Position numbers and translations under genes: made by a program. From IMG/VR virus record IMGVR_UViG_2585427734_000005: a stretch of 23,325 nt of DNA. One strand, given 5' to 3'. The notes below the pieces were generated by a model. That model was not told where the DNA came from and made no database searches. It saw only the letters and a list, made by a program, of their open reading frames with translations. Numbering within the stretch: the stretch's first letter is position 1; the number at the start of each line of letters is the position of its first letter. Shown here in pieces: positions 5,607 to 22,927 of this stretch. The stretch comes from a virus. Taxonomy: Duplodnaviria; Heunggongvirae; Uroviricota; Caudoviricetes.

Positions 5607-5827
5607 CACCATGACTCCGCCTTTACAGGTAAACCATCACGACCGAGGAAGACTTTAATCATGCGGTCAGTAATGCATGTTTTTGTGGTCAGGTTACGAA
5701 TATATAGTTTTCGCTTTTTAATATTGTTTGCCGAGGCAATATATGTCCGGCCTTCATGAAGAACATAATCGCCAGGAGTCACACACTGACGTGGTATTTC
5801 ATCAGTTCCGAAGTGATGTGCAATCAT
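5606..5827 (-). CDS. kilR: Killing protein KilR (cell-division inhibitor), 73 aa
   Basis: ATG at 5825-5827 preceded by GGAGA at a 6-nt spacing. Product [73 protein letters not shown] matches KilR from memory. Confidence 0.85.
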
Positions 5828-6268
5828 AATTATCTCCATTTTTACAAATGAACTTTGTTGATGCGGTGCCTGGTGCCTCCAGGTGACTGCAACCAGTTAA
5901 CAATTACAGTCGGCTTTCCCACCCAAACCAATAAGGACTAACATGACTTTTAACTGTGCCACGTGCGCTTAGCCGCATTCACCGCATCACAAAATTCACT
6001 TTAAAAAGGGCGGACATCAGCCGAACTTCAAGAAAAAAACTGATGCCGCCAGGACTACACACAGCAATGTCGTTATTTACAACCGGAGGCGCACTCCCAC
6101 CATTTAAATTTAACAGACAAGACCGACTCTTTATGGATATCGGAAATGCGCCTTCGTGTTGTGCCCGGTTTTATTTCACCACCTCCGGGCTTCGGTGGTC
6201 TCGGCTATACCCCTACAGCGAGAGCTTGTGTTAACATTTCAATACCCTTACAGTTGAGAGTTATTGAT

Positions 6269-6757
6269 ATGTTGGATGTATTTCCTCCATTGTTGAAACT
6301 TTTTGCTAACGAGCCACTCGAAAGACTTATGTATACGATTATCATTTTTGGTCTCACTCTCTGGCTGATACCGAAAGAGTTTACTGTCGCATTCAATGCT
6401 TATACTGAAATACCTTGGCTCTTTCAGATTATCGTTTTTGCCTTTTCTTTCGTGGTCGCCATTTCCTTCTCAAGATTGCGAGCACATATTCAAAAGCATT
6501 ATTCATTACTGCCAGAGCAACGAGTATTGCTTCGTTTATCTGAGAAAGAAATCGCTGTATTTAAAGATTTCCTTAAAACAGGAAATCTTATTATCACTTC
6601 TCCTTGCCGTAACCCGGTTATGAAAAAATTAGAACGGAAGGGCATCATTCAACATCAGAGTGATAGCGCAAACTGTTCTTATTATCTCGTCACCGAAAAA
6701 TACTCCCATTTTATGAAGTTATTCTGGAACAGCAGGAGTAGACGTTTTAATCGTTAG
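6269..6757 (+). CDS. sieB: Superinfection exclusion protein SieB, 162 aa
   Basis: ATG at 6269 (GAGAG upstream). Product MLDVFPPLLKLFANEPLERLMYTIIIFGLTLWLIPKEF... has hydrophobic N-terminal segments and matches SieB. The listed ORF extends upstream to 6146 but lacks an ATG with an RBS there. Confidence 0.85.
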   Translation: MLDVFPPLLKLFANEPLERLMYTIIIFGLTLWLIPKEFTVAFNAYTEIPWLFQIIVFAFSFVVAISFSRLRAHIQKHYSLLPEQRVLLRLSEKEIAVFKDFLKTGNLIITSPCRNPVMKKLERKGIIQHQSDSANCSYYLVTEKYSHFMKLFWNSRSRRFNR

Positions 6758-6909
6758 CTTACTGTGTGCTTCTCCAACCATCGGCGCGCACCAGTTTCGG
6801 TTTTAAATGTTTTGCTTTTGGTATACGTCATGGCAGTGAACGTTCCATCCTGGTTGGGGAACACGCCGCACACCAGGGATTCGTTGTTGCCGAGGTCGAT
6901 TTTTTGCAT
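6754..6909 (-). CDS. ydaF: Small protein YdaF-like, 51 aa
   Basis: Hand translation from ATG 6907-6909 gives MQKIDLGNNESLVCGVFPNQDGTFTAMTYTKSKTFKTETGARRWLEKHTVS. Its 3' end overlaps the sieB stop convergently. Not in the ORF track (under 60 aa). Confidence 0.65.
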   Translation of the reverse strand: MQKIDLGNNESLVCGVFPNQDGTFTAMTYTKSKTFKTETGARRWLEKHTVS

Positions 6910-10458: not shown

Positions 10459-12462
10459 ATGATTATGAGTGAAAATGATACAACCCCAAAGAAGTCTACA
10501 AGCCAGATTAACAAAGCGGTATTCTTTACATCTGCTTTGCTAATTTTCCTTCTTGTCGCCTTTGCCGCCGTATTCCCGGATGTCGCCGACAAAAATTTTA
10601 AACTACTTCAGCAACAAATCTTCACGAATGCCAGCTGGTTCTACATACTTGCTGTGGCCCTGATTTTACTGAGCGTCACGTTCCTTGGACTCTCACGTTA
10701 CGGTGATATAAAGCTGGGCCCAGACCATGCGCAGCCTGATTTCAGCTACCACTCCTGGTTCGCGATGCTTTTTTCGGCAGGGATGGGGATCGGCCTGATG
10801 TTCTTTGGCGTTGCCGAACCTGTGATGCATTATCTTTCGCCACCTGTCGGCACTCCAGAGACCGTTGCGGCAGCGAAGGAAGCCATGCGCCTGACGTTCT
10901 TCCACTGGGGTCTGCACGCATGGGCAATTTATGCCATCGTGGCGCTGATTCTGGCCTTTTTCAGTTACCGTCACGGTCTGCCTTTAACGCTGCGTTCTGC
11001 GCTCTATCCCATTATCGGCGATCGCATTTACGGGCCTATAGGCCACGCGGTTGATATCTTCGCCGTGATAGGCACTGTCTTTGGCGTTGCAACATCGCTG
11101 GGTTACGGTGTATTGCAGGTGAATGCCGGTTTGAACCATCTTTTCGGCGTGCCCATCAATGAAACGGTACAGGTCATTTTGATCGTGGTCATCACGGGGT
11201 TAGCGACGATTTCGGTGGTGTCCGGCCTGGACAAGGGAATACGCATCCTGTCTGAGCTTAATCTGGGCCTGGCGGTGTTGCTCCTGGCGCTGGTCTTGTG
11301 CCTGGGTCCCACTGTGCTTCTGCTGAAGTCATTTGTGGAAAATACGGGTGGTTATTTGTCGGAACTGGTGAGTAAAACGTTCAACCTTTACGCGTATGAA
11401 CCCAAGTCGAGCAACTGGCTGGGGGGCTGGACATTATTATACTGGGGATGGTGGCTTTCATGGTCGCCGTTTGTAGGTATGTTCATTGCACGCGTTTCCC
11501 GCGGCAGGACAATTCGTGAGTTCGTGACTGGCGTGTTGTTTGTTCCCGCCGGCTTTACGCTCATGTGGATGACGGTGTTTGGAAACAGCGCCATCTATCT
11601 CATCATGAACCAGGGCGCCACTGACCTCGCCAATACCGTTCAGCAGGATGTTGCGCTTGCCCTGTTTAATTTCCTGGAGCATTTCCCGTTCTCTTCCGTG
11701 CTGTCATTCATTGCAATGGCGATGGTCATCGTCTTCTTTGTAACGTCTGCTGATTCGGGGGCAATGGTTGTGGATACTCTGGCATCAGGTGGGGTGGCAA
11801 ACACGCCCGTCTGGCAGCGAATTTTCTGGGCATCGCTCATGGGCGTTGTTGCTATTGCCCTGCTGATCGCAGGGGGGCTGAGTGCGTTGCAAACCGTAAC
11901 GATAGCGAGTGCATTGCCCTTCTCAGTTATCTTATTAATATCCATATACGGACTGTTAAAAGCCCTGCGTCGGGATTTGACCAAGCGTGAAAGCCTTAGC
12001 ATGGCGACTATTGCTCCTACGGCTGCACGTAACCCAATTCCCTGGCAGAGAAGGTTACGCAATATCGCGTATTTGCCGAAGCGCTCTCTTGTGAAACGTT
12101 TTATGGACGACATTATCCACCCCGCCATGACGCTGGTTCAGGAGGAACTTAACAAGCAGGGAACGATAAGCCACATCAGTGACGCCGCCGAGGATCGTAT
12201 TCGCCTTGAAGTCGATTTGGGCAACGAGCTGAATTATATATATGAAGTGAGGCTTCGCGGGTATAACTCACCGACCTTCGCGCTCGCTGCGCTGGATAAT
12301 GATGAGCAGCAGAGTGAACAACATCGATATTATCGCGCTGAAGTCTATCTCAAAGAGGGCGGCCAAAATTATGATGTAATGGGCTGGAATCAGGAACAGC
12401 TGATTAATGACATACTGGACCAGTACGAAAAACACCTGCACTTCCTGCATCTGGTTCGTTAA
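10459..12462 (+). CDS. betU: BCCT-family osmolyte transporter (BetT/BetU-like), 667 aa
   Basis: Strong similarity throughout to E. coli BetT as recalled (for example WxxWWxxWSPFVGMFIARVSRGRTIREF, SADSG, ...DILDQYEKHLHFLHL). The 667-aa length and position in a Rac-like prophage suggest the BetU variant; the gene symbol is less certain than the family call. Confidence 0.85.
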   Translation: MIMSENDTTPKKSTSQINKAVFFTSALLIFLLVAFAAVFPDVADKNFKLLQQQIFTNASWFYILAVALILLSVTFLGLSRYGDIKLGPDHAQPDFSYHSWFAMLFSAGMGIGLMFFGVAEPVMHYLSPPVGTPETVAAAKEAMRLTFFHWGLHAWAIYAIVALILAFFSYRHGLPLTLRSALYPIIGDRIYGPIGHAVDIFAVIGTVFGVATSLGYGVLQVNAGLNHLFGVPINETVQVILIVVITGLATISVVSGLDKGIRILSELNLGLAVLLLALVLCLGPTVLLLKSFVENTGGYLSELVSKTFNLYAYEPKSSNWLGGWTLLYWGWWLSWSPFVGMFIARVSRGRTIREFVTGVLFVPAGFTLMWMTVFGNSAIYLIMNQGATDLANTVQQDVALALFNFLEHFPFSSVLSFIAMAMVIVFFVTSADSGAMVVDTLASGGVANTPVWQRIFWASLMGVVAIALLIAGGLSALQTVTIASALPFSVILLISIYGLLKALRRDLTKRESLSMATIAPTAARNPIPWQRRLRNIAYLPKRSLVKRFMDDIIHPAMTLVQEELNKQGTISHISDAAEDRIRLEVDLGNELNYIYEVRLRGYNSPTFALAALDNDEQQSEQHRYYRAEVYLKEGGQNYDVMGWNQEQLINDILDQYEKHLHFLHLVR

Positions 12463-12469
12463 CAGCAAC

Positions 12470-12498
12470 ATGCCGCCACAGAGGCGGCATTTATTTAT
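12470..12498 (+). terminator. Rho-independent terminator downstream of the BCCT transporter gene
   Basis: Perfect 8-bp stem ATGCCGCC/GGCGGCAT with loop ACAGA, followed by TTATTTAT, 8 nt after the stop codon. Confidence 0.6.
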
Positions 12499-12525
12499 CC
12501 CGGCTGCAATATGAGGGAATGCAGA

Positions 12526-13803
12526 ATGATTTCACGCTGGAAATGGATGCTGAAGCAGACATTTAAAAAACTATGGTTCAGGGCAACGTTATTCGCAATT
12601 GTCGCAATAATAACGGCCCTTTTATCAATTCTTTTTAAATCAATGATACCTGAGTCGGTTTCCGTGAAGGTTGGTGCGGAAGCAGTCGATAACATTCTGA
12701 ACATACTGGCATCGAGTATGCTGGCAGTGACCACATTTTCGCTGAGCATCATGGTCACAGCCTACGGTTCAGCCACTACTAATGTGACTCCCAGAGCTAC
12801 TCGTTTAGTTGTTGAAGACGTCACCACACAAAATGTACTGGCCACCTTCATCGGTTCTTTTCTCTTCAGTCTGGTAGGGATTATTGCTCTCAATATGGGA
12901 GCTTATGGAGAAAGGGGGAGAGTCATTTTATTCATTGTAACACTGGTTGTCATTGCCTTAATCCTCATCACATTGCTTCGCTGGATACAGCATTTGACCT
13001 CTCTGGGGAGGGTTGGTGAGACAACGGCAAAAGTAGAACAGGCGGCCATCGAAACATTTATTGCGAGAGCAAGAAATCCCTGTCTCGGCGGATATCCATG
13101 GCTTGAGAACAATGAACAGCCGAAAGGAACGGTTGCAGTTTATCCGAAAAAGATTGGCTATGTTGAATATGTTGATATGGTGAAACTCAGCAAGCTGCTG
13201 ACCAATGATCCCCGTCATGTATACCTCGTGGCGCAGCCGGGCAGTTTCATACATCCGTCCACGCCAGTTTTGTACCTGAGTCAGGGCCAGGAGTCATCAA
13301 TCAGCACCGATTTACTTGAGACGATTATTGTCTCGGATGTACGTTCATTTGCTCAGGACCCCCGATTTTGTCTTAGCGTCATGGCCGAAATAGCCTGCCG
13401 AGCCCTTTCCCCCGCAGTGAACGATCCTGGAACCGCCATTGATGTCATTGGCAGAGGTGTACGTATACTTTCCGCTTACGCGCAGAATAAATCTGATGAA
13501 ATAGAAGTGAAATATCCTTCTGTACATGTTGCACCACTTCAGAATAACGATCTACTTGAAGACTTTTTCTCACCTGTTGCGCGCGATGGTGCCAGTATGA
13601 GGGAAATTCAGATAAGGGTACTTAAAGGACTGTCGATGCTGAGTAAGGGTTGGCCTGGAATTTTTGCTGAAGCCGCACAAACCCTAGCATTTGAAACATT
13701 AGAGCATGCTACTCGTGCTGACCATATAGATTCTGACAGATATCTAATAAAATCAATTTATTATAATTTATTTAGTGGCGAAGATTCTAATAAAAAACCA
13801 TAG
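12526..13803 (+). CDS. Hypothetical membrane protein, 425 aa (N-terminal transmembrane segments plus large soluble domain; possibly DUF2254-like)
   Basis: ATG at 12526 preceded by GAGGGAA at a 6-nt spacing (an alternative ATG at 12511 has no SD). Hydrophobic N-terminal half and a long C-terminal domain. The family assignment is a tentative recollection. Confidence 0.6.
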   Translation: MISRWKWMLKQTFKKLWFRATLFAIVAIITALLSILFKSMIPESVSVKVGAEAVDNILNILASSMLAVTTFSLSIMVTAYGSATTNVTPRATRLVVEDVTTQNVLATFIGSFLFSLVGIIALNMGAYGERGRVILFIVTLVVIALILITLLRWIQHLTSLGRVGETTAKVEQAAIETFIARARNPCLGGYPWLENNEQPKGTVAVYPKKIGYVEYVDMVKLSKLLTNDPRHVYLVAQPGSFIHPSTPVLYLSQGQESSISTDLLETIIVSDVRSFAQDPRFCLSVMAEIACRALSPAVNDPGTAIDVIGRGVRILSAYAQNKSDEIEVKYPSVHVAPLQNNDLLEDFFSPVARDGASMREIQIRVLKGLSMLSKGWPGIFAEAAQTLAFETLEHATRADHIDSDRYLIKSIYYNLFSGEDSNKKP

Positions 13804-13863
13804 TTGCGGAGCAAGCGATACGGTTGTTGGCAAGTCAAGGGCAAAGCATTCGCGTGAGAGTGG

Positions 13864-13889
13864 GCGTCTGCTTTGTGCCAGAAGCGGAC
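13864..13889. repeat. Hairpin repeat copy B (GCGTCTGCT-N10-AGCGGAC)
   Basis: 7-bp stem with one G-U-compatible mismatch and loop TTGTGCCAGA (nearly identical to the copy A loop), between the convergent membrane-protein and LysR genes. Confidence 0.5.
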
Positions 13890-13933
13890 ATACGTAACTT
13901 ATGATACGCATCGCCAATCATCCGTTTCAAACA

Positions 13934-14815
13934 TCAACGCGGAAACGTTTTAAGAATGTAATCCCGAACATAGGCGGTTCGGCTGTTATTAGCCGTCCTT
14001 TTGTTCCAGACCAGATAAAGATGATTAGTCGGAGCGAGGTCTGCAGGTGTCACTGAAATCAGGCGACCACTTTTCAGGTCATTGTCACAGTGATAATCCG
14101 GCAGCACTGTCCACCCGTGGCCGTCACAGACCAAGTCGCGGATAATACGTAAATCCGGAATGGTGAATGTAGCCTGCATCTCAGGGGCTCTCTGAAACAT
14201 GGAGGCCCAGAGCGCTCTAATCAGTGGCAACTCTTCGTCATAAGCAATCAGCGGTAATGAGGCAAGCGTTTCAGCACCAGGTTCTGATCCGATGATCTCT
14301 GACATGGCGGGAGCATGAACAAGGAGCATGCGTTCAGTCAGTAGATGTGCATAGCCGTACAGACGGTCATCAGGCATAGATGTGGTAACAGCGAGATCGG
14401 CGCTCCCGTCATGCAAAAGGGAATAAATACGTTGCTTATTGCCGGTATGAAAGCGTAGGCGATACCCCTCCTTCATTAGTGGAGCCATTACTGTCCCAAG
14501 CCGGGAATGAATAAAATCTGGCGGTCCTGCCAGATTAATTGTTCCCCCGCGTACAGAGCCTGACCGGAAAGAGGACAGCTTTTCTTCCAGACCATCAATG
14601 AAGGGTGAAACTGAGCGGGCAAGCTCATCCGCAGCTTCGGTTGCCGTCACGCCTCTGGCCTGCCTGATAAACAGACGCTTACCAACCAGAGTCTCAAGAG
14701 ACTGGATATGCTGTGACGCCGCGGGCTGAGTGATGCCCAGTAGTTCTGCCGCCTTTGAAAAGGAGCCAGAGCGATAGGCCTCAAGAAACGTTCGCAGATG
14801 GCTCAGATGGCTCAT
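13934..14815 (-). CDS. LysR-family transcriptional regulator, 293 aa
   Basis: N-terminal HTH typical of LysR-type regulators (MSHLSHLRTFLEAYRSGSFSKAAELLGITQPAASQHIQSLE) with a C-terminal substrate-binding-like domain. The ATG overlaps the upstream gene's stop (ATGA). Confidence 0.9.
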   Translation of the reverse strand: MSHLSHLRTFLEAYRSGSFSKAAELLGITQPAASQHIQSLETLVGKRLFIRQARGVTATEAADELARSVSPFIDGLEEKLSSFRSGSVRGGTINLAGPPDFIHSRLGTVMAPLMKEGYRLRFHTGNKQRIYSLLHDGSADLAVTTSMPDDRLYGYAHLLTERMLLVHAPAMSEIIGSEPGAETLASLPLIAYDEELPLIRALWASMFQRAPEMQATFTIPDLRIIRDLVCDGHGWTVLPDYHCDNDLKSGRLISVTPADLAPTNHLYLVWNKRTANNSRTAYVRDYILKTFPR

Positions 14816-15504
14816 AGTGAAGCGCCTCGCTGATGAAGTTTATCGTTACAGGGAGCCTCATGCAGAGCAAGGGCCAGTTCACTCACGTAATCATCCCGTA
14901 TTCCCAACGCACCCAGAGTGGCCTGCAGTTTCCATACATAATCTGCATTCGTGCCAATGTCTCCACGGGCAGATGCGATGCTCAACGCTACGGTCGCTGT
15001 AAGATTGTCCTGTTCATAATGCGGATGCAGTCTGTCTGATACGAAAGCCAGCGCCTGAATTTCCTCACCGTTTCCTAGCGAAACGTCTGCCCAGACCGGA
15101 CGGTAAAGACCGGTTATCATCTCGCGCGTCCAGACAATTTCCAGCTCATTAATAAGAGTCGATTCCGGCAGTCTGAACGCAATACCTTCGGTAATTCCAC
15201 CTTCGTCGAGCGATAACATCCTGCCGGGGACATCAGGAGTCGCTCGTCCGGATATCAAACGAATGCAGAAACTGCGCTGCCATCCTTTCAGACGGGCCCG
15301 TTGCATTTCTTCAATCGCCAGCACGGGATTCCACATCAATGACCCGTAGGCAAATATCCAGACAGGAGCACCCGTCGGGCGCTCCTCCAGAGTAGAGTTC
15401 ATTGATGCGCGTATTTTTTCAGCGTCCCAGAGCATATTCGCCGGGAGCAGCGCTTCATGCACCCTGACAAATGTGCCATTAAGCATATTTTCACGGGTAA
15501 GCAT
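14812..15504 (-). CDS. ChaC-like gamma-glutamylcyclotransferase family protein, 230 aa
   Basis: Contains the ChaC/GGCT hallmark VWIFAYGSLMWNP and overall similarity to E. coli ChaC as recalled. GGGAGGT SD upstream of the ATG at 15502-15504. Confidence 0.85.
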   Translation of the reverse strand: MLTRENMLNGTFVRVHEALLPANMLWDAEKIRASMNSTLEERPTGAPVWIFAYGSLMWNPVLAIEEMQRARLKGWQRSFCIRLISGRATPDVPGRMLSLDEGGITEGIAFRLPESTLINELEIVWTREMITGLYRPVWADVSLGNGEEIQALAFVSDRLHPHYEQDNLTATVALSIASARGDIGTNADYVWKLQATLGALGIRDDYVSELALALHEAPCNDKLHQRGASL

Positions 15505-15515
15505 ATAACCTCCCT

Positions 15516-16716
15516 TTACTGGCCTACGATTTTAACCTGTTGAAATTTACGACTGTGGCTGCGACGGATTTGTGCAAGCAGCAACAGCAGGCCGAGCAGA
15601 GAAACAATCGCACCGCTGATACCGGTATACACGATACCGGCGTGGCTTATAGTAATGCTGCCCAGTACTGATCCCAGCGCTATACCTGAGTTGAAGCCCG
15701 CAATATTCAGGCCGGCAGCAACACCATGCGCATGAGGAGCATGTTGCTCAGCGACACCAATCAGACGGGCCTGCAGTGCCGGCACTGCGGCAAATGTCAC
15801 CATACCCAGCAGCGCAACCACAATGCCCATGCTCACCGGTGAGGATGACAGCAGCCACATACCAAGCACGACAACAACAATGCCGCTAATGATGAGTATA
15901 TTGGCACGATTAACCCCCATGCTGTCGGTAAGTTTCCCACCAAGAATATTACCTACCGCAGCTGTAATACCGTAAACCAGCATAAACAGACTCACCGTTG
16001 CTCCGGTAACCCCTGTCACCTGCGTCAGAATAGGTGCGATAAAGGTGTAAGCCGTAAACGAGCCTGCATACGCCAGCACCGTAACCAGCGCGCCGGCCAG
16101 CAACTTACGGTTAAACAGCATGCCGATATTCTGCATTGCTGAGTCACTATGTTCACCGGGCACGCTGCGTACGGGATCTTTCATACCGAACAACAGTCCA
16201 AGGAATCCGAACGCGCCAAAAGCGGCAATAGCGCCGAGAACTGGACGCCATGAGACCCCCCCCCCCCAACCATGTACTCAGCGGTACGCCGATTGCCATC
16301 GCCAGAGTAAAGCCACCAAATACCACAGCCACCGCTCTGCCTGCTTTACCCGGTCCAGCAAGACGAGCTGCGGTACTGGATGCCGCAGCCAGAAACAGGC
16401 CGTGTCCCAGACCAGCAATGAACCGCGCTAACAGGAGCTGAGGTAATGTGGCTGCAAACGCGGCCGCCAGACTACCGGCAGTAAACACAACGGCAGTTGT
16501 AAGCATTACATTTTTCCGGCTCCAGCTTGCTGTCAGCGCAGACAGTACGGGTGCCGCGAACGTTGCCCCCAGTGCATAGGTTGTAACCGCTGCCCCGGTC
16601 TGCTCCACACCCACACACAACCCCTGAGCCATAACGTCTGTCAGCCCAATGGGGACAAATTCCGCGAGTCCGAGCGCAAAGGCACTGATAGTAAACACAT
16701 AAATAACAAATGGCAT
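15516..16716 (-). pseudogene. MFS transporter (DHA1/YdhP-AraJ-like), split into two ORFs by a frameshift at a C12/G12 homopolymer
   Basis: N-terminal ORF 16153-16716 (AGGAG SD, 12 nt after a TM-rich start MPFVIYVFTISAFALGLAEF...) and C-terminal ORF 15516-16193 are both MFS-like with multiple TM helices. The frames switch at the 12-C run at 16256-16267. Confidence 0.8.
16256..16267. repeat. Homopolymeric tract C12 (G12 on the coding strand) at the MFS frameshift site
   Basis: Twelve consecutive C residues counted directly in the sequence. Confidence 0.9.
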
Positions 16717-17225: not shown

Positions 17226-17309
17226 TTTTATATTGGCGAGGTGACGGGAGTTAAGTAGAATTGCTGCGGGTGCTTGAGGCTATCTGCCTCAGGCATGAAC
17301 ACCAAAGGC

Positions 17310-17388
17310 AGATAGAGAAAAGCCCCAGTTAACATTACGCGTCCTGCAAGACGCTTAACATTAATCTGAGGCTCAATCTATGAACGGC
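17310..17388 (-). ncRNA. Putative Sok-like antisense RNA of the hok locus
   Basis: Minus-strand promoter: -35 TTGCCT (plus 17418-17423), 17-bp spacer, -10 TAACCT (plus 17395-17400), same layout as the R1 Sok promoter as recalled. The transcript would be antisense to the hok leader and end at a GCGTC/GACGC hairpin followed by a U-rich run. Boundaries are approximate. Confidence 0.35.
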
Positions 17389-17436
17389 AAATCTAGGTTA
17401 GCCTCTTACGTGCCGAAAGGCAAGGAGAAGCAGGCT

Positions 17437-17592
17437 ATGAAGCAGCAAAAGGCGATGTTAATCGCCCTGATCGTCATCTGTTTAACCGTTATAGTGACGG
17501 TACTGGTAACGAGGAAAGACCTCTGCGAGGTACGAATCCGAACCGACCAGACGGAGGTCGCTGTCTTCACAGCTTACGAACTTGGGGAGTAA
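17437..17592 (+). CDS. hokD: Hok-family type I toxin (HokD/RelF-like), 51 aa
   Basis: MKQQKAMLIALIVICLTVIVTVLVTRKDLCEVRIRTDQTEVAVFTAYELGE is near-identical to HokD/RelF as recalled. AAGGAG SD at 17422-17427, an upstream in-frame mok-like ORF from 17380, and a 3' hairpin GCGGGGA-GAAA-TCCCCGC (17601-17618). Confidence 0.8.
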   Translation: MKQQKAMLIALIVICLTVIVTVLVTRKDLCEVRIRTDQTEVAVFTAYELGE

Positions 17593-18055: not shown

Positions 18056-18655
18056 ATGGCGCATATACAACTGGTCAAACAAACTTCTTCTGGTTTACTT
18101 CTCCCGGCGACGCCGGAGAGTTGCGATTTTCTGCATCAAATCAAAATAGGTGAGTGGATACACGTAGACTTTAAGCGTGTGCGTAACTACGCATTCCACA
18201 AGCGTTTTTTCAAACTCCTGCAACTGGGATTCGATTACTGGACTCCGGTCGGTGGGGCGATCACGCCTCGCGAACGAGAACTGCTGTCTGGTTTCGTTGA
18301 TTACCTGTGCGAATCAGTTGGTCGGGAACACACGCCAGCCCTGAGTGATGCCGCAGAGCAATACCTTAACACCGTTGCGACTCGTAGAACCCGGGATACG
18401 GCGTTGCTAAAGTCGTTTGAGGCTTTCCGCGAGTGGGTAACCATTCAGGCCGGATTTTACACCGAGCATATTTATCCGGACGGTAGCCGTGGGCGTCGGG
18501 CAAAATCCATCGCTTTTGCGAATATGGACGAAGTCGAGTTTCAGCAGGTTTATAAATCTGTACTGAATGTGCTGTGGAACTGGATTCTGTTCCGTAAATT
18601 CTCCTCTCAGGAGGAAGTTGAAAATGTGGCCGCACAACTACTGGAGTTTGCGTAA
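18056..18655 (+). CDS. Phage protein (DUF1367-like; position equivalent to Qin ydfU N-terminal part), 199 aa
   Basis: ORF with ATG at 18056, translationally coupled to the next gene (TAATG at 18653-18657). The family call comes from recalled gene order in lambdoid prophages (DUF1367, YbcO, Q) and is not confirmed by sequence. Confidence 0.5.
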   Translation: MAHIQLVKQTSSGLLLPATPESCDFLHQIKIGEWIHVDFKRVRNYAFHKRFFKLLQLGFDYWTPVGGAITPRERELLSGFVDYLCESVGREHTPALSDAAEQYLNTVATRRTRDTALLKSFEAFREWVTIQAGFYTEHIYPDGSRGRRAKSIAFANMDEVEFQQVYKSVLNVLWNWILFRKFSSQEEVENVAAQLLEFA

Positions 18656-19122
18656 TGGTGAATTTACGTAAAGCGGCTAAAGGCCAGATGTGCCAGATCA
18701 GAATCCCTGGCTACTGCAATCACAATCCCGAAACCTCTGTGCTGGCGCATTACAGGCTGGCGGGGACGTGCGGAACAGCGACAAAACCACACGATATGCA
18801 GGCGGCGATAGCCTGTAGCTCATGCCACGATCTAATCGACGGGCGGGTAAAAACCAGCGATTACACCAAAGAAGAATTGCGCCTGATGCATGCTGAAGGG
18901 GTTTTCGCACACAAGAAATCTGGAGAAAGAAAGGTCATTTATGATTTACCCAACGAATACAGGAAAAAGCGGAGAACACCTTCGCCTCACCACGCTGGAA
19001 AGTGTCTGGATTCAGGGAAAACTACGTATGTGGGGGCGCTGGTCGTATATTGGCGGTGGCAGGTCAGGGAATATGTTCAATCAGTTGTTGGCATCCAAAA
19101 AACTGACGAAAACAGCCATTAA
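18655..19122 (+). CDS. YbcO-like protein (DUF1364, Cys-rich putative nuclease), 155 aa ORF, about 60 aa longer than typical YbcO
   Basis: N-terminal 95 aa (MVNLRKAAKGQMCQIRIPGYCNHNPETSVLAHYRLAGTCGTATKPHDMQAAIACSSCHDLIDGR...) resembles DLP12 YbcO as recalled. The ORF then continues and overlaps the next gene by about 180 nt. Confidence 0.55.
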   Translation: MVNLRKAAKGQMCQIRIPGYCNHNPETSVLAHYRLAGTCGTATKPHDMQAAIACSSCHDLIDGRVKTSDYTKEELRLMHAEGVFAHKKSGERKVIYDLPNEYRKKRRTPSPHHAGKCLDSGKTTYVGALVVYWRWQVREYVQSVVGIQKTDENSH

Positions 19123-19483
19123 TGAAGCCCTGCGCAGAATGAAAAAAGCGGGAATAGAGAAAGCTGAGCTGGAAGCGTTTTTGCGAGAGATGATCAACGG
19201 CAAGCAAAAGAGCTGGCTGGCGCATTGTACTGATGCAGAGGCGTTATGTATTGATCGAGTCATAAGTGAGGTGCTGGCAGAGCATCCAGGATTGATTTGC
19301 ATTCTCCGGCAACGCTATGAAGGGCGGGGGATGACTAAGCGCAAAATGGCTGAATTGCTAAATGATGCACACCCAGAGTGGTGTTTTAGCACATGCGAAA
19401 AACGGATTGCTAATTGGTTAGCTGTTGCTGAGTATGCCCTATATATTCCCATGCGTGAATCATTTGCTGAGAAAATGGCTTGA
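18941..19483 (+). CDS. Putative late-gene antiterminator (Q-like), about 180 aa
   Basis: Positioned directly upstream of the terminator and the moron/lysis region. It has a ...LESVW...WGRWSY... segment reminiscent of the LERWGAW motif of Q21/QuuD-type antiterminators. The start is uncertain (ATG 18941 with a weak SD; the ORF opens at 18890). Confidence 0.45.
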   Translation: MIYPTNTGKSGEHLRLTTLESVWIQGKLRMWGRWSYIGGGRSGNMFNQLLASKKLTKTAINEALRRMKKAGIEKAELEAFLREMINGKQKSWLAHCTDAEALCIDRVISEVLAEHPGLICILRQRYEGRGMTKRKMAELLNDAHPEWCFSTCEKRIANWLAVAEYALYIPMRESFAEKMA

Positions 19484-19563: not shown

Positions 19564-19590
19564 AAAAAAACCGCTTAATGCGGTTTTTTT
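19564..19590. terminator. Intrinsic (bidirectional) terminator downstream of the Q-like gene
   Basis: AAAAAAACCGC-TTAAT-GCGGTTTTTTT: GC stem flanked by an A7 run on one side and a T7 run on the other. Confidence 0.7.
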
Positions 19591-20527
19591 ACGTCAGGAA
19601 AGCAGGGGAGAATGCTGCTAGTTGGGCAACTGGTCTTTCTGCTCCAAATTATAACAGAGACCAGTTATAGTTTCGGTGCTGTGTTTTTTTTACAATATTG
19701 TGATAACACATTGCTGGCGGGAGTTTTGATATTTCTTGGCAGGGGCTGATGATGCGTTATCCTGATGTCGTCAACTCATATAAAATGAGATGAGAGATCA
19801 TTGCAGGGTGGTTTGTAATTCGCTGTTTAGCGGGACAATATGTTGTCTGATACAAGACACCCGACGCCTCAGATTACTATAATAAAGATGAAGCATCCTT
19901 TGTATTGACCAACCACCTGTTTAGGCGGTTCTTTTTGGGCTGGTTTATTGTATGCAAAATGATTATTAAAAAGGTTGTGTTAATAACAAAATCCGAAATA
20001 ATATGCCTGCATATTTTTATCTTGCTTATATTCTGCATATTGTGCATAGCAGGCTCATCCCTGCAATCAAAACTGTATGATGAGTATTTTTTGTTTTCCT
20101 TTTTTCCAGTCATCTGATGATGACCTGCTTCTTTTTAATCCGGATCGACATCAGTTTTTTAAGATAATTCCTGCGAGTTATATGCATAAATGCCACAAAC
20201 TCCGCATTTTATGTGGTTGGGAGTTGCCGGGCGCGCAGTGAGTTTGCTAAGAAAACTCCTGCATGGTGAATCCCCCTGTGCGGTGGGGTGATACCATTAA
20301 CCTTTTCTGTCGCCGACAGGTATCACGAACATTTTGTTCACCGGGAGGCACCCGGCACCATGCACTTCAATAGATTCTCTCCACATTATGGATATTCTTT
20401 CAGAATATCCCACGCAGACTTTGTGTAAATGTTAACAAATGTGCGTTTTATTTGATCTGATTCGCTGTTTGAGCGTCCAAAACAACGGTATATATAATCC
20501 TTTACTATATGACATATGTGAGGAAAA

Positions 20528-20956
20528 ATGGGTTTTCGTAGCGCATCAATTCCTACGTTGATTATTAGTGGGATTATTATCGGGTGCACTGATGCTGTAT
20601 CGACAAATTATCATGACCGTACATCATATTACTCCGATAAAGCAATAGAGACACAGTATGTGAGTTCATCTGAACGTACTTCTGATGTTAGTGAGGATAT
20701 CCGTCTGTATGCCCATCAAATCAAGAGCGCCATCGAAAAACAGTTCGGGGATGCGAGTAAGTATTCAGGAAAAGAGTGTACACTGAGAATGCATATGGCC
20801 CCGAATGGCCTTCTACTGGAGGTTAAAAGAGAAAGTGGAGACCTCGATTTATGTCGTGAAGCGATGAATGCGATAAAGAATGCTGATATACCTGCCCCCC
20901 CTTCGCCGGAAGTATATAAAGTATTTCAAAATGGGGTGCTGGATTTTAAACCCTGA
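20528..20956 (+). CDS. Lipoprotein with TolA domain-III-like C-terminal domain, 142 aa
   Basis: Signal peptide with lipobox IIGC and Thr at +2; SD GAGG 5 nt upstream. C-terminal region YAHQIKSAIEKQFGDASKYSGKECTLRMHMAPNGLLLEVKRESGDLDLCREAMNAIKNADIPAPPSPEVYKVFQNGVLDFKP parallels the TolA C-terminus (...YAGQIKSAIESKFYDASSYAGKTCTLRIKLAPDGMLLDIKPEGGDPALCQAALAAAKLAKIPKPPSQAVYEVFKNAPLDFKP) as recalled. Confidence 0.8.
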   Translation: MGFRSASIPTLIISGIIIGCTDAVSTNYHDRTSYYSDKAIETQYVSSSERTSDVSEDIRLYAHQIKSAIEKQFGDASKYSGKECTLRMHMAPNGLLLEVKRESGDLDLCREAMNAIKNADIPAPPSPEVYKVFQNGVLDFKP

Positions 20957-21106
20957 TATTTATTGTTTTGTAATAAACGGTTTCGGCTTAGGTTTGTTCT
21001 GACACAGCTACGGCACTGAGCTAAATTTAGCGGATAGTCAGCTCTGAGCCAGTGGCGGACGTAACAACTACTATTGCTGAGATTTTAATGGATTGAGGAG
21101 CAAGAA

Positions 21107-21502
21107 GTGGGATTAAAGAAAATCGTTATGTTGACTTTTTGGGTCGGTTTTGTTGCGGGATGCACACCTTTACACCCTTCAGATTGCCACAAAACTACTG
21201 CTACAGGTAGTTGCAGTTCAGGACGCTGGGATGATCAGGATGAATGGGGGGCGCAAGCGCGGGGAATCAGAGCTGCAATTAATGCCAAACTTGATGAGCC
21301 GCATAACTGGAAAGGGAAAAAATGCAGGTTGCATATGGAATTCTCTCAGGATGGCACGGCGTTAAAAATATCTACCAGTAACGGTGATAAAGCCTATTGC
21401 GAAGCGATAAAGTCCGCAGCTCATAAAGCCAAATTTCCGGCCTTCAACAATCCGGAAGTCTACAGAGATTTTCAGAAATCTGGCTTTGACATGCGAGGTT
21501 AG
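21107..21502 (+). CDS. Second lipoprotein with TolA domain-III-like C-terminal domain (divergent paralog), 131 aa
   Basis: GTG start 6 nt after GAGGAG; signal peptide with lipobox VAGC and Thr at +2. The C-terminal region (GKKCRLHMEFSQDGTALKIS...YCEAIKSAAHKAKFPAFNNPEVYRDFQ) shares the TolA-III-like pattern of the upstream paralog. Confidence 0.7.
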   Translation: MGLKKIVMLTFWVGFVAGCTPLHPSDCHKTTATGSCSSGRWDDQDEWGAQARGIRAAINAKLDEPHNWKGKKCRLHMEFSQDGTALKISTSNGDKAYCEAIKSAAHKAKFPAFNNPEVYRDFQKSGFDMRG

Positions 21503-21627: not shown

Positions 21628-21653
21628 AGCTCGCTACGGCGAGCTTTTTATAT
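21628..21653. terminator. Intrinsic terminator-like hairpin between the second TolA-like gene and the holin gene
   Basis: Perfect 7-bp stem AGCTCGC/GCGAGCT with loop TACG, followed by TTTTTATATT and preceded by an A/T-rich run. Confidence 0.5.
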
Positions 21654-21753
21654 TGCATCGTCTCCAGCATATATATCAATTAAGGCTCTGATTGATGTGT
21701 CTGAAAGCCTACACATAATAACTATGCCATCCGTTCCGTGCGGAGGTGAGGCT

Positions 21754-21969
21754 ATGAAATCCATGGACAAAATTTCAACAGGCATTGCCTACGGCACCTC
21801 CGCAGGCAGTGCTGGCTACTGGTTTTTACAGTTGCTCGATAGAGTAACTCCGTCACAGTGGGCTGCAATCGGTGTGCTGGGTAGTCTGGTATTTGGCCTG
21901 CTGACGTACCTGACAAACCTTTATTTCAAGATTAAAGAAGATAAGCGCAAGGCTGCGAGAGGTGAATAA
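21754..21969 (+). CDS. Holin (phage 21 S21-type pinholin, EssD/EssQ-like), 71 aa
   Basis: [71 protein letters not shown] with the dual-start motif M-K-S-M, two TM segments and a charged C-terminus. GGAGGTGA SD; stop overlaps the endolysin start (TAATG). Confidence 0.9.
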
Positions 21970-22466
21970 TGCCTCCATCATTACGAAAAGTCGTTGCTGC
22001 TGCTATTGGTGGCGGAGCAATTGCTATAGCATCAGTGTTAATCACTGGCCCAAGTGGTAACGATGGTCTGGAAGGTGTCAGCTACATACCATACAAAGAT
22101 ATTGTTGGTGTATGGACTGTATGTCACGGGCATACAGGAAAAGACATCATGCTCGGTAAAACGTATACCAAAGCAGAATGCAAAACACTCTTGAATAAAG
22201 ACCTTGCCACGGTCGCCAGACAAATTAACCCGTACATCAAAGTCGATATACCGGAAACAACGCGCGGCGCTCTTTACTCATTCGTTTACAACGTGGGTGC
22301 TGGCAATTTCAGAACATCGACGCTTCTTCGCAAAATAAACCAGGGCGATATCAAAGGCGCATGTGATCAGCTACGTCGCTGGACATATGCTGGCGGTAAG
22401 CAATGGAAAGGTCTCATGACTCGTCGTGAGATTGAGCGTGAAATCTGTTTGTGGGGTCAGCAATGA
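21969..22466 (+). CDS. SAR endolysin (phage 21 R21-type lysozyme, glycoside hydrolase family 24), 165 aa
   Basis: N-terminal signal-anchor-release segment ([18 protein letters not shown]) followed by a T4-lysozyme-like domain; near-identical to R21/RrrD as recalled. Confidence 0.9.
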
Positions 22467-22927
22467 ACAGAGTAACCGCGATTATCTCCGCTCTGGTTAT
22501 CTGCATCGTCGTCTGCCTGTCATGGGGTGTTAATCATTACCGTGATAACGCCATCGCCTACAAAGAACAGCGCGACAAAAATGCCAGAGAACTGAAGCTG
22601 GCGAACGCGGCAATTACTGACATGCAGATGCGTCAGCGTGATGTTGCTGCGCTCGATGCAAAATACACGAAGGAGTTAGCTGATGCGAAAGCTGAAAATG
22701 ATGTTCTGCGTGATGATGTTGCCGCTGGTCGTCGTCGGTTGCACATCAAAGCAGTCTGTCAGTCAGTGCGTGAAGCCACCACCGCCTCCGGCGTGGATAA
22801 TGCAGCCTCCCCCCGACTGGCAGACACCGCTGAACGGGATTATTTCCCCCTCCGGGAACGACTGGTAATGATGCAGGCCCAACTTGAAGGTGCTCAGCAA
22901 TACATAACCGAGCAGTGTTTAAAGTAA
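22463..22927 (+). CDS. Rz (inner-membrane spanin), 154 aa
   Basis: ATG overlaps the endolysin stop (ATGA). N-terminal TM segment followed by a coiled-coil-like periplasmic domain; matches RzpD/RzpQ-type Rz as recalled. Confidence 0.9.
22683..22868 (+). CDS. Rz1 (outer-membrane lipoprotein spanin), 61 aa, embedded in the +1 frame of Rz
   Basis: Lipobox VVGC and a proline-rich mature region ([22 protein letters not shown]), fully nested within Rz. Confidence 0.85.

Follow-up and report, generated by a model that had tools for sequence, protein, structure and literature searches.

Why does a prophage carry, between its late-gene regulator and its lysis genes, two small lipoproteins that end in a domain of TolA? 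The question is raised by the window analysed here, the whole 23,325-nucleotide (nt) stretch of the virus record IMGVR_UViG_2585427734_000005. We found it to be a segment of the Escherichia coli chromosome, with the Rac prophage sitting at ttcA. An earlier note on this DNA had described two of its genes, ORF1 and ORF2, as tandem prophage lipoproteins that mimic TolA's C-terminal domain (TolA-III). TolA-III is the shared entry point of group A colicins and filamentous phages, the latter familiar from phage display and cholera-toxin transfer. Both ORFs lie exactly where that note had placed them, each behind a Shine-Dalgarno sequence. They belong to a large, uncharacterised and mobile gene family, whose members would most plausibly act as decoys. 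The two genes and their parts are as follows.

20528 to 20956, + strand: ORF1, 142 amino acids (aa), ATG start, Shine-Dalgarno sequence GAGGA at 20520-20524; signal and lipobox (IIGC) in residues 1-20, disordered tether in residues 21-54, TolA-III domain in residues 55-142
21107 to 21502, + strand: ORF2, 131 aa, GTG start, Shine-Dalgarno sequence GAGGAG at 21095-21100; signal and lipobox (VAGC) in residues 1-19, conserved Cys-x8-Cys tether in residues 20-45, TolA-III domain in residues 46-131

The C-terminal halves are copies of TolA-III

The earlier note had proposed profile and structure searches against TolA-III, and those made here agreed on this domain for both C-terminal halves. Pfam family PF06519 matched ORF1 with 82.6 bits (2.4e-23) and ORF2 with 54.6 bits (1.3e-14), at a gathering cut-off of 25. 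TolA/TonB_2 was the only Pfam domain in the two proteins, besides one sub-threshold But2 match in ORF2. In phmmer comparisons with TolA-III entries of the Protein Data Bank (PDB), ORF1 was about 60% identical across 88 residues (5.5e-28) and ORF2 about 31% identical (5e-09). AlphaFold2 models reached a pLDDT of about 90 over the domain only, and disorder was predicted for residues 1-53 of ORF1 and 1-39 of ORF2. The top Foldseek matches of both models were E. coli TolA-III, and matches to crystal structures had a root-mean-square deviation (rmsd) of 0.6-1.8 Å and a template modelling (TM) score of up to 0.94. The alpha1-beta1-beta2-alpha2-alpha3-beta3 fold superposed on solved E. coli TolA-III at 0.6-1.3 Å (ORF1 on 2x9a_B, rmsd 0.6 Å, TM 0.94; ORF2 on 3qdp, rmsd 1.1 Å, TM 0.92).

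The similarity could be followed to single residues. The C-terminal match quoted in the earlier note, VFQNGVLDFKP in ORF1 and VFKNAPLDFKP in TolA, was confirmed exactly, and the alpha3-beta3 C-terminal segment is the part of ORF1 most conserved relative to TolA (15 of 22 residues). An aromatic-x-G-K loop motif is nearly invariant in the family (YSGK in ORF1, WKGK in ORF2, YAGK in TolA). The disulfide cysteines C363 and C388 of TolA were invariant in an alignment of 21 sequences, as C84 and C109 in ORF1 and C73 and C98 in ORF2. The domain is a homologous copy of TolA-III, and the word "mimic", taken in a convergent sense, had to be given up.

Neither protein is a TolA orthologue. Both lack the membrane anchor and domain II, and both begin with a lipoprotein signal. 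TolA equivalog profiles matched them only in the last 90-100 positions. For NF007065, the scores of 107.8 (ORF1) and 53.7 (ORF2) did not reach the cut-off of 213; for TIGR02794, ORF1 passed (75.6, cut-off 59.45) solely through C-terminal profile positions 265-362. We also considered whether ORF1 was recently captured from host tolA. This was rejected, with 60% identity to E. coli TolA-III and no closer relationship to any full-length TolA representative.

Both proteins are predicted outer-membrane lipoproteins

Signal peptides were judged by a rule of the PROSITE PS00013 type, which requires [LVI][ASTVI][GAS]C with the Cys at position 15-35, K or R within the first seven residues and a hydrophobic core. 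Both proteins passed. The signal peptide of ORF1 is MGFRSASIPTLIISGIIIGC, followed by TDA (Cys at 20), and that of ORF2 is MGLKKIVMLTFWVGFVAGC, followed by TPL (Cys at 19). The Gly-Cys is kept across both lineages. Residue +2 is Thr, not Asp, in both proteins, so there is no Lol-avoidance signal, and the lipoprotein signals without an inner-membrane retention residue that the earlier note had described were recovered. Since Asp at +2 is also absent from all 54 homologues that pass the rule (see below), ORF1 and ORF2 are predicted to be anchored in the outer membrane.

The GTG start of ORF2 is supported because the plasmid and Klebsiella copies show ATG in the same alignment column (alignment A4), where Enterobacter, Citrobacter and Serratia also have GTG. 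Conservation in this alignment sets in about 40 nt 5' of the start. The RefSeq features, transferred from NZ_CP033250.1, begin ORF2 (WP_001348108) at an ATG at 21128, 21 nt past the supported GTG, and the RefSeq plasmid copies of the gene are started 36 nt too early. On this alignment, both the shorter and the longer RefSeq start are probably off. ORF1 is annotated by RefSeq/PGAP only as 20696-20956, a tolA pseudogene that is "incomplete; missing N-terminus". Such calls conceal the lipoprotein signals of both genes in public annotation.

The genes are under purifying selection

The ratios of nonsynonymous to synonymous divergence (dN/dS) were estimated pairwise by the Nei-Gojobori method.

ORF1 domain: five of six pairs at 0.09-0.34; the sixth, with the near-identical copy P0023, at 0.86
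ORF1 tether: 0.2-0.6
ORF2 domain: 0.06-0.15 where a Rac or pO157-like copy was compared; at most 0.32 for Citrobacter, Serratia and Klebsiella among themselves
ORF2 tether: 0-0.10 across five genera

None of the 79 copies in IMG/VR had an internal stop. By these estimates, both genes are under purifying selection.

This bears on the idea that a tolA 3' end was captured and that the ORFs are its non-functional remains. The RefSeq/PGAP label on ORF1 implies as much, and the prophage, which is grounded, has in part degraded (sieB has an internal stop and a YbcO-like gene a frameshift). We nevertheless hold decay to be very improbable. Both ORFs are complete and have a Shine-Dalgarno sequence and a canonical lipoprotein signal, and reading frame, lipobox and cysteines are kept in homologues down to 64% identity. 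Their dN/dS is well under 1 and 79 of 79 viral-contig copies are free of internal stops. In addition, ORF1 is just 60% identical to E. coli TolA-III and is thus not a recent broken copy. The pseudogene call is therefore an artefact, both because the genes are under purifying selection and because the naming rests on a TolA equivalog model that matches through its last 100 positions only.

Two lineages that usually occur singly

All distribution figures given here are lower bounds, taken from the matches listed. The pair occurred at 99% identity or more in at least 774 of 5426 complete E. coli genomes (about 14%) and, among the matches listed, in one deposited phage, mEp460. IMG/VR contained 35 loci with the pair, 28 with ORF1 only and 16 with ORF2 only. 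An obligate two-gene system was rejected on these counts, since each gene is commonly alone. Thus, the tandem arrangement reported earlier is real in the window, but the survey of co-occurrence revealed separate lineages, usually single, and not a dedicated pair. Similarly, "prophage" is the right word for the ORF1 lineage but not for the ORF2 lineage, a mobile single gene that at least five other genera have in their chromosomes and that conjugative and pO157-like plasmids carry as well.

Among the matches listed, ORF1-type genes were found only in E. coli and Shigella. Every locus was a lambdoid prophage with the gene between a Q gene (lambda-type Antiterm or DUF1133) and the holin gene. The gene is alone in variants of 90% and 65% identity (loci L010-L013 and L024-L027) and accompanied by ORF2 in the window, in phage mEp460 and in locus L028; at L012 it adjoins a nanS-p-like esterase gene. 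P0023 (L028, 311-739) is a mosaic allele, with the signal and tether of the 65% type and the domain of the Rac type. Against ORF1 of the window, its synonymous divergence (dS) was 1.37 and 0.81 for the signal and tether, compared with 0.08 for the domain, which implied recombination at the tether-domain boundary.

ORF2-type proteins are 78-89% identical in Citrobacter, Enterobacter, Serratia, Klebsiella and Raoultella. Their genes are inserted singly, and the neighbours differ from genus to genus.

Enterobacter: flanked by genes for a glutathione peroxidase and a RidA-family protein
Citrobacter: flanked by a lactonase-like gene and the ars operon
Serratia: between nrdDG and GmrSD and HEPN genes
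Klebsiella oxytoca: flanked by genes for a TetR protein and an acetyltransferase
A further site: at the edge of a prophage remnant beside umuDC

The dS between Citrobacter and Serratia copies was as low as 0.15, which points to recent horizontal transfer. ORF2-type genes were also present on at least about 600 plasmids, including IncK2/Z conjugative and pO157-like IncF plasmids. On IncK2/Z plasmids the gene lies directly 3' of the relaxase gene, in the nikB-trbC site, which also holds resistance genes and insertion sequence (IS) elements; on pO157-like IncF plasmids it lies between an IS3 element and toxB. On the IncK2/Z plasmid p2-S1-CAM-02-A (L023, 5728-8429), about 1.9 kb separates it from a gene for a peptidase-domain ABC transporter of the microcin/colicin V export type.

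A wider family of short TolA-domain lipoproteins

A profile search of 1.84 billion cluster representatives returned 581 clusters at E ≤0.001, and among the best 150 of these, 96 were at most 170 aa long. Together with ORF1, ORF2 and six relatives from earlier homology searches, they formed a comparison set of 104 short proteins. The strict lipoprotein rule was passed by 54 of the 104, compared with 3 of 54 long TolA proteins, and Asp at +2 occurred in none. By this rule, at least 54 clusters of short TolA-domain lipoproteins appear to exist. Erwinia, Klebsiella, Enterobacter, Serratia, Dryocola, Scandinavium, Hafnia and Kosakonia contribute the named members, each of which has a generic "TolA" name. 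The Kosakonia gene lies 3' of icd and adjoins DinI and HsdR remnants.

In a rough neighbour-joining tree of the domain, ORF2 and its relatives formed a deep, separate clade, all with Cys-x8-Cys after the lipobox, and ORF1 grouped among the TolA-like short lipoproteins. The resolution of this tree was too poor to count the origins of the lipoprotein form.

The earlier note knew of no characterised system of this kind. Likewise, we found no described family or characterised system for ORF1 and ORF2 in PADLOC, NCBIfam or PHROGs, and no characterising paper in a full-text literature search that covered few subscription journals. Their family in PHROGs, number 5772, is labelled "unknown function". 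The sole mention in the literature searched was a row in a genome-comparison table for uropathogenic E. coli, "TolA protein, hypothetical protein, 1,355 bp". Papers on O157 strains that name tolA proved to refer to the host gene and were set aside.

Proposed decoys for Tol-dependent invaders

We tentatively read ORF1 and ORF2 as outer-membrane-tethered interceptors of Tol-dependent colicins and filamentous phage, and give this reading a little less than an even chance. The architecture, fold, lipobox, selection, mobility and moron-like context were observed; from them we infer localisation, ligand binding and phenotype. A tether of 25-35 residues would hold the disulfide-stabilised TolA-III domain in the periplasm. 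There, beta-strand addition at its free beta3 edge strand might capture the TolA-binding epitopes brought into this compartment by Tol-dependent invaders. The ligands would be bacteriocins (group A colicins and their relatives) and the g3p-N1 domains of Ff, If1 and IKe-type filamentous phages; the N-terminus of TolB, exposed by enzymatic colicins, is a further possible one. Since the proteins lack the TolA membrane anchor and the long helical domain II, their domain could not be energised by TolQR. Import would lose its coupling to the energised TolQRA machine, which would make the lysogen, or the host of the plasmid, tolerant. As the two lineages and their surfaces differ, tandem copies would probably widen the range of ligands.

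What is known of the beta3 strand fits this reading. TolB, colicin N and g3p-N1 bind TolA-III by beta-strand addition at beta3, through the backbone of D418 and K420 (PMC4339652). Proline at either position abolishes the binding of TolB, colicin N and g3p, and random mutagenesis showed that beta-propensity outweighs sequence at this site (PMC4339652). The edge is kept in ORF1 (VLDFKP) and ORF2 (GFDMRG), is described here as free of proline, and has a nearly invariant equivalent of D418 in the family. TolA that is not energised is thought to be compact and near the inner membrane (review, PMC8928145), so a copy tethered to the outer membrane would meet incoming ligands first. There is also a precedent for sequestration in the periplasm, where g3p-N1 occupies TolA, makes cells tolerant to colicin A and lowers phage uptake by 4 logs (PMC10424213).

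The gene context of both lineages is of the accessory or defence gene type. ORF1-type genes occupy the slot between Q and holin genes, ORF2-type genes travel on plasmids, and relatives have GmrSD and HEPN neighbours in Serratia and DinI and HsdR remnants beside them in Kosakonia. I-complex pili are receptors for the TolA-dependent phage If1. Periplasmic TolA-III was reportedly found by Levengood-Freyermuth et al. (J Bacteriol, 1993) to make cells tolerant to group A colicins, but leaky.

Several points weigh against decoys. In PADLOC, no defence model matched ORF1 or ORF2 at E ≤1. Colicin A binds the opposite edge of TolA-III, at L375-P380 with K368, K379 and K396 (PMC3365938). None of these contact side chains is left in ORF2, which is only about 31% identical to TolA-III; by the mapping from PMC3365938, K368 has become E, D377 K, K379 S and K396 H. 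ORF1 keeps two of the three lysines but has His in place of K368, which is the partner of the essential Tyr58 of colicin A. The constraint on the ORF2 tether (dN/dS 0-0.10) is not required by a simple decoy. Free periplasmic TolA-III is dominant-negative for envelope integrity, so a decoy should carry a cost. A late-operon position just before the lysis genes would suit a function in lytic growth equally. Finally, the binding and the phenotype on which the decoy reading depends are predictions.

The ORF2 tether and the possibility of another partner

No part of ORF2 is under stronger constraint than its tether (residues 20-45, window 21164-21241, TPLHPSDCHKTTATGSCSSGRWDDQDEW). The tether follows the pattern CxPLHPSxCHKTTATGSCSSGRWDDQDEW, of which Cys-x8-Cys is common to the entire ORF2 clade. 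We compared its segment SSGRWDDQDEWG (SGRW...W) with the TolB box of colicins (DGSGW...W). The essential Asp and Ser positions are unmatched and W47 lies inside helix 1 of the domain, and the likeness was set aside as speculation.

Because the tether is more constrained than the domain, the scaffold may have acquired a different partner, mainly in ORF2. This could be some other protein of the envelope, a part of the conjugation apparatus or a pilus, or a factor of the host, with a role in, for example, plasmid transfer, exclusion or virulence. ORF2, about 31% identical to TolA-III, differs from it in surface residues, and its clade is deep and separate. Its gene adjoins the relaxase gene on IncK2/Z plasmids and lies near toxB on pO157-like virulence plasmids. 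However, the nikB-trbC site acts as a cargo hotspot and not as part of the transfer operon, because it also carries resistance genes and IS elements. Moreover, ORF2 retains the beta3 edge and the disulfide cysteines, and ORF1, 60% identical to TolA-III, is hard to fit. A re-purposed scaffold thus seems distinctly improbable.

The decoy reading can also be extended. The genes might form a mobile innate-immunity module of Enterobacterales, in which TolA-III co-receptor decoys at the inner face of the outer membrane are tuned, lineage by lineage, to different invaders. Tandem copies would stack specificities, and the Cys-x8-Cys tether of ORF2 would be a second binding module. We regard this extended version as possible but on balance doubtful.

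A moron-like slot between the Q-like gene and the lysis cassette

The placement of the pair between a Q-like gene and the lysis cassette, as first proposed, was borne out by Pfam matches to a DUF1133 gene upstream and to holin, lysozyme, Rz and Rz1 genes downstream. The features of this region are listed below.

18890 to 19483, + strand: Q-like late-gene regulator (DUF1133; Pfam PF06576, 3.5e-107); in RefSeq a DUF1133 family protein with its start at about 18942
19564 to 19590, + strand: hairpin between an A-run and a T-run, AAAAAAACCGC-TTAAT-GCGGTTTTTTT, read from the sequence just 3' of the Q-like gene and not listed by the consensus scan
20231 to 20417, + strand: structured RNA of the STnc100 family (Rfam RF02076, 86.6 bits, gathering cut-off 47, E 3.9e-18), about 110 nt 5' of ORF1
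20469 to 20498, + strand: sigma-70 promoter-like site, TTGAGC-18 nt-TATAAT (consensus scan, 10/12), 30 nt 5' of the ORF1 start
21628 to 21655, + strand: GC-rich hairpin resembling an intrinsic terminator, AGCTCGC-TACG-GCGAGCT with a T-run (consensus scan), between ORF2 and the holin gene
21754 to 21969, + strand: P21-type holin, essD-like (Pfam PF04971, 4.5e-35; RefSeq essD; longest ORF from 21697)
21969 to 22466, + strand: phage lysozyme, rrrD-like (Pfam PF00959, 1.8e-45)
22451 to 22927, + strand: Rz spanin (Pfam PF03245, 8.9e-53)
22683 to 22868, + strand: Rz1 lipoprotein gene, embedded in Rz (Pfam PF06085, 2e-19)

The Q-like gene also matched PF06530 (Phage_antitermQ) weakly, at the gathering cut-off (26.0 bits, E 9.1e-06). 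The hairpin just 3' of it is a candidate tR'-type terminator, which late transcription would read through. The layout is moron-like, as the earlier note had suggested, with a promoter-like site on the 5' side and a terminator-like hairpin on the 3' side bracketing the pair in the Q-S slot. On these consensus matches, the pair looks like a moron that could be transcribed from a promoter of its own as well as by Q-modified late transcription. The promoter-like site is kept in the 90%-identical ORF1 locus L025, and the 65% variant has a different upstream region and a hairpin terminator of its own.

The presence of the genes is also variable. Other prophages carry ORF1 alone or beside other cargo. 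Rac of E. coli K-12 MG1655 runs from ydaW through an rzpR pseudogene to trkG and is missing the entire Q-to-lysis stretch with ORF1 and ORF2. This absence is probably the reason that the genes were neglected in the standard laboratory strain.

STnc100 elements recur in the Q-to-holin regions of lambdoid prophages, at 5704-5877, 6599-6803 and 6854-7061 in L024 and L025 and at 5828-6018 in L001. In L024 and L025, the three elements stand on either side of the ORF1-type gene. These could serve as structured leader RNAs for the morons of the late region, or as repeats for the exchange of cargo at the slot.

Tol-Pal modulation as the main rival

The same slot is part of the case for the main rival to decoys, in which the target is the host's Tol-Pal system. 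A tethered TolA-III would bind the N-terminus of host TolB, and possibly Pal or CpoB, without force and thereby damp the mobilisation of Pal. The outcome would be altered outer-membrane stability and more vesiculation, an envelope weakened for holin, endolysin and spanin if the genes are transcribed late, or a physiological role where they are chromosomal. The pair lies directly 3' of the Q-like gene and 5' of the holin gene, so late transcription would include it. No segment of ORF1 is better conserved than the TolB-binding beta3 strand (PMC4339652 for the TolB site), and TolA beta3 mutants that do not bind TolB show the full tol phenotype (PMC4339652). The aromatic-x-G-K loop is nearly invariant. 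A physiological role would also fit the strong purifying selection at stable chromosomal sites in Enterobacter and Klebsiella.

On the other hand, TolA binds TolB weakly (about 40 µM; PMC4339652), so that the proteins would have to be highly expressed. A lysogen or plasmid host pays for a leaky envelope, but plasmids, chromosomes and grounded prophages without a lytic cycle (this Rac among them) retain the genes. The outer membrane is already taken care of by the spanins at lysis, and between the pair and the lysis genes lies a terminator-like hairpin. Taken together, we consider modulation of Tol-Pal unlikely.

Other features of the Rac prophage

The Rac of the window is a non-K-12 form. Its recognisable genes are intR, xisR, rcbA, ralR, recT, recE, kilR and sieB, with a racR-like immunity region. 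A cargo island of about 6 kb, not present in K-12 Rac, lies at about 10459-16716 between the replication genes and hokD; it carries genes for a BCCT transporter, a DUF2254 protein, a LysR regulator, a gamma-glutamylcyclotransferase and a major facilitator superfamily (MFS) transporter. The order 3' of this island is hokD/sok, DUF1367, YbcO-like, Q-like DUF1133, ORF1, ORF2, P21-type holin, lysozyme, Rz/Rz1 and trkG. The sok antitoxin RNA at 17268-17442 (Rfam RF01794, 111.7 bits), just 5' of the nin-like genes, makes up an ordinary hok/sok module with the hokD toxin gene.

Relative to strain ECCHD184, the YbcO-like gene (18655-19122) has a 1-nt deletion at about 18902-18906 that shifts the frame of its C-terminus. 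The resulting YbcO/DUF1364-like ORF of 155 aa runs into the Q-like gene, whereas the unshifted version ends at 96 aa. The frameshift may disturb translational coupling to the Q-like gene.

Significance and comparison with known systems

If the decoy reading is true, a mobile, membrane-tethered TolA-III would be a new kind of envelope defence, a co-receptor decoy and not a receptor mask. It could help to explain why wild E. coli strains differ in their sensitivity to colicins and Ff phages, and would bear on bacteriocin-based therapeutics and on hosts for phage display. If the proteins modulate Tol-Pal instead, they would offer a natural tool to probe TolB-Pal dynamics and vesiculation. Relatives on pO157-like and IncK2/Z resistance plasmids, and the pair in at least about 14% of complete E. 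coli genomes, add to the interest of the question.

The closest known relative is TolA-III itself (E. coli TolA, about 334-421; PDB 1TOL, 2X9A, 3QDP and 3QDR), with which ORF1 and ORF2 share PF06519, the alpha/beta fold, the disulfide cysteines, the aromatic-x-G-K loop and the beta3 edge. Unlike TolA, they have neither the transmembrane anchor nor domain II and no coupling to TolQR and the proton motive force. Their signals predict the opposite, outer membrane, and their genes belong to mobile elements and not to the tol-pal operon.

In gene type, they resemble Llp of T5, Cor of phi80, N15 and HK022 and TraT of F, which are likewise small accessory genes of phages or plasmids for outer-membrane lipoproteins (a localisation that is predicted here). 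Llp, Cor and TraT are thought or known to block the entry of competitors at the envelope, and Llp and Cor bind and plug the outer-membrane receptor FhuA. However, no domain is common to these proteins and ORF1 or ORF2. Being copies of a periplasmic co-receptor domain, ORF1 and ORF2 would titrate the invader, or TolB, where Llp and Cor mask a receptor.

In position, the pair resembles the morons of the lambdoid Q-to-S region (stx, tRNA genes, nanS-p and csp). The slot is the same, promoter-like and terminator-like signals are present, and presence varies among related prophages; the cargo is different.

In the network that would be affected, the nearest parallels are the sequestration of TolA by g3p and the dominant-negative effects of periplasmic TolA-III or colicin T-domains, all of which place a competitor for the TolA-III interface in the periplasm (PMC10424213). 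In those cases, the competitor is the phage's own entry protein or a laboratory construct, whereas here it is a natural, membrane-tethered TolA-III on unrelated mobile elements. By analogy, ORF1 and ORF2 might be regarded as the mirror image of g3p-mediated TolA sequestration.

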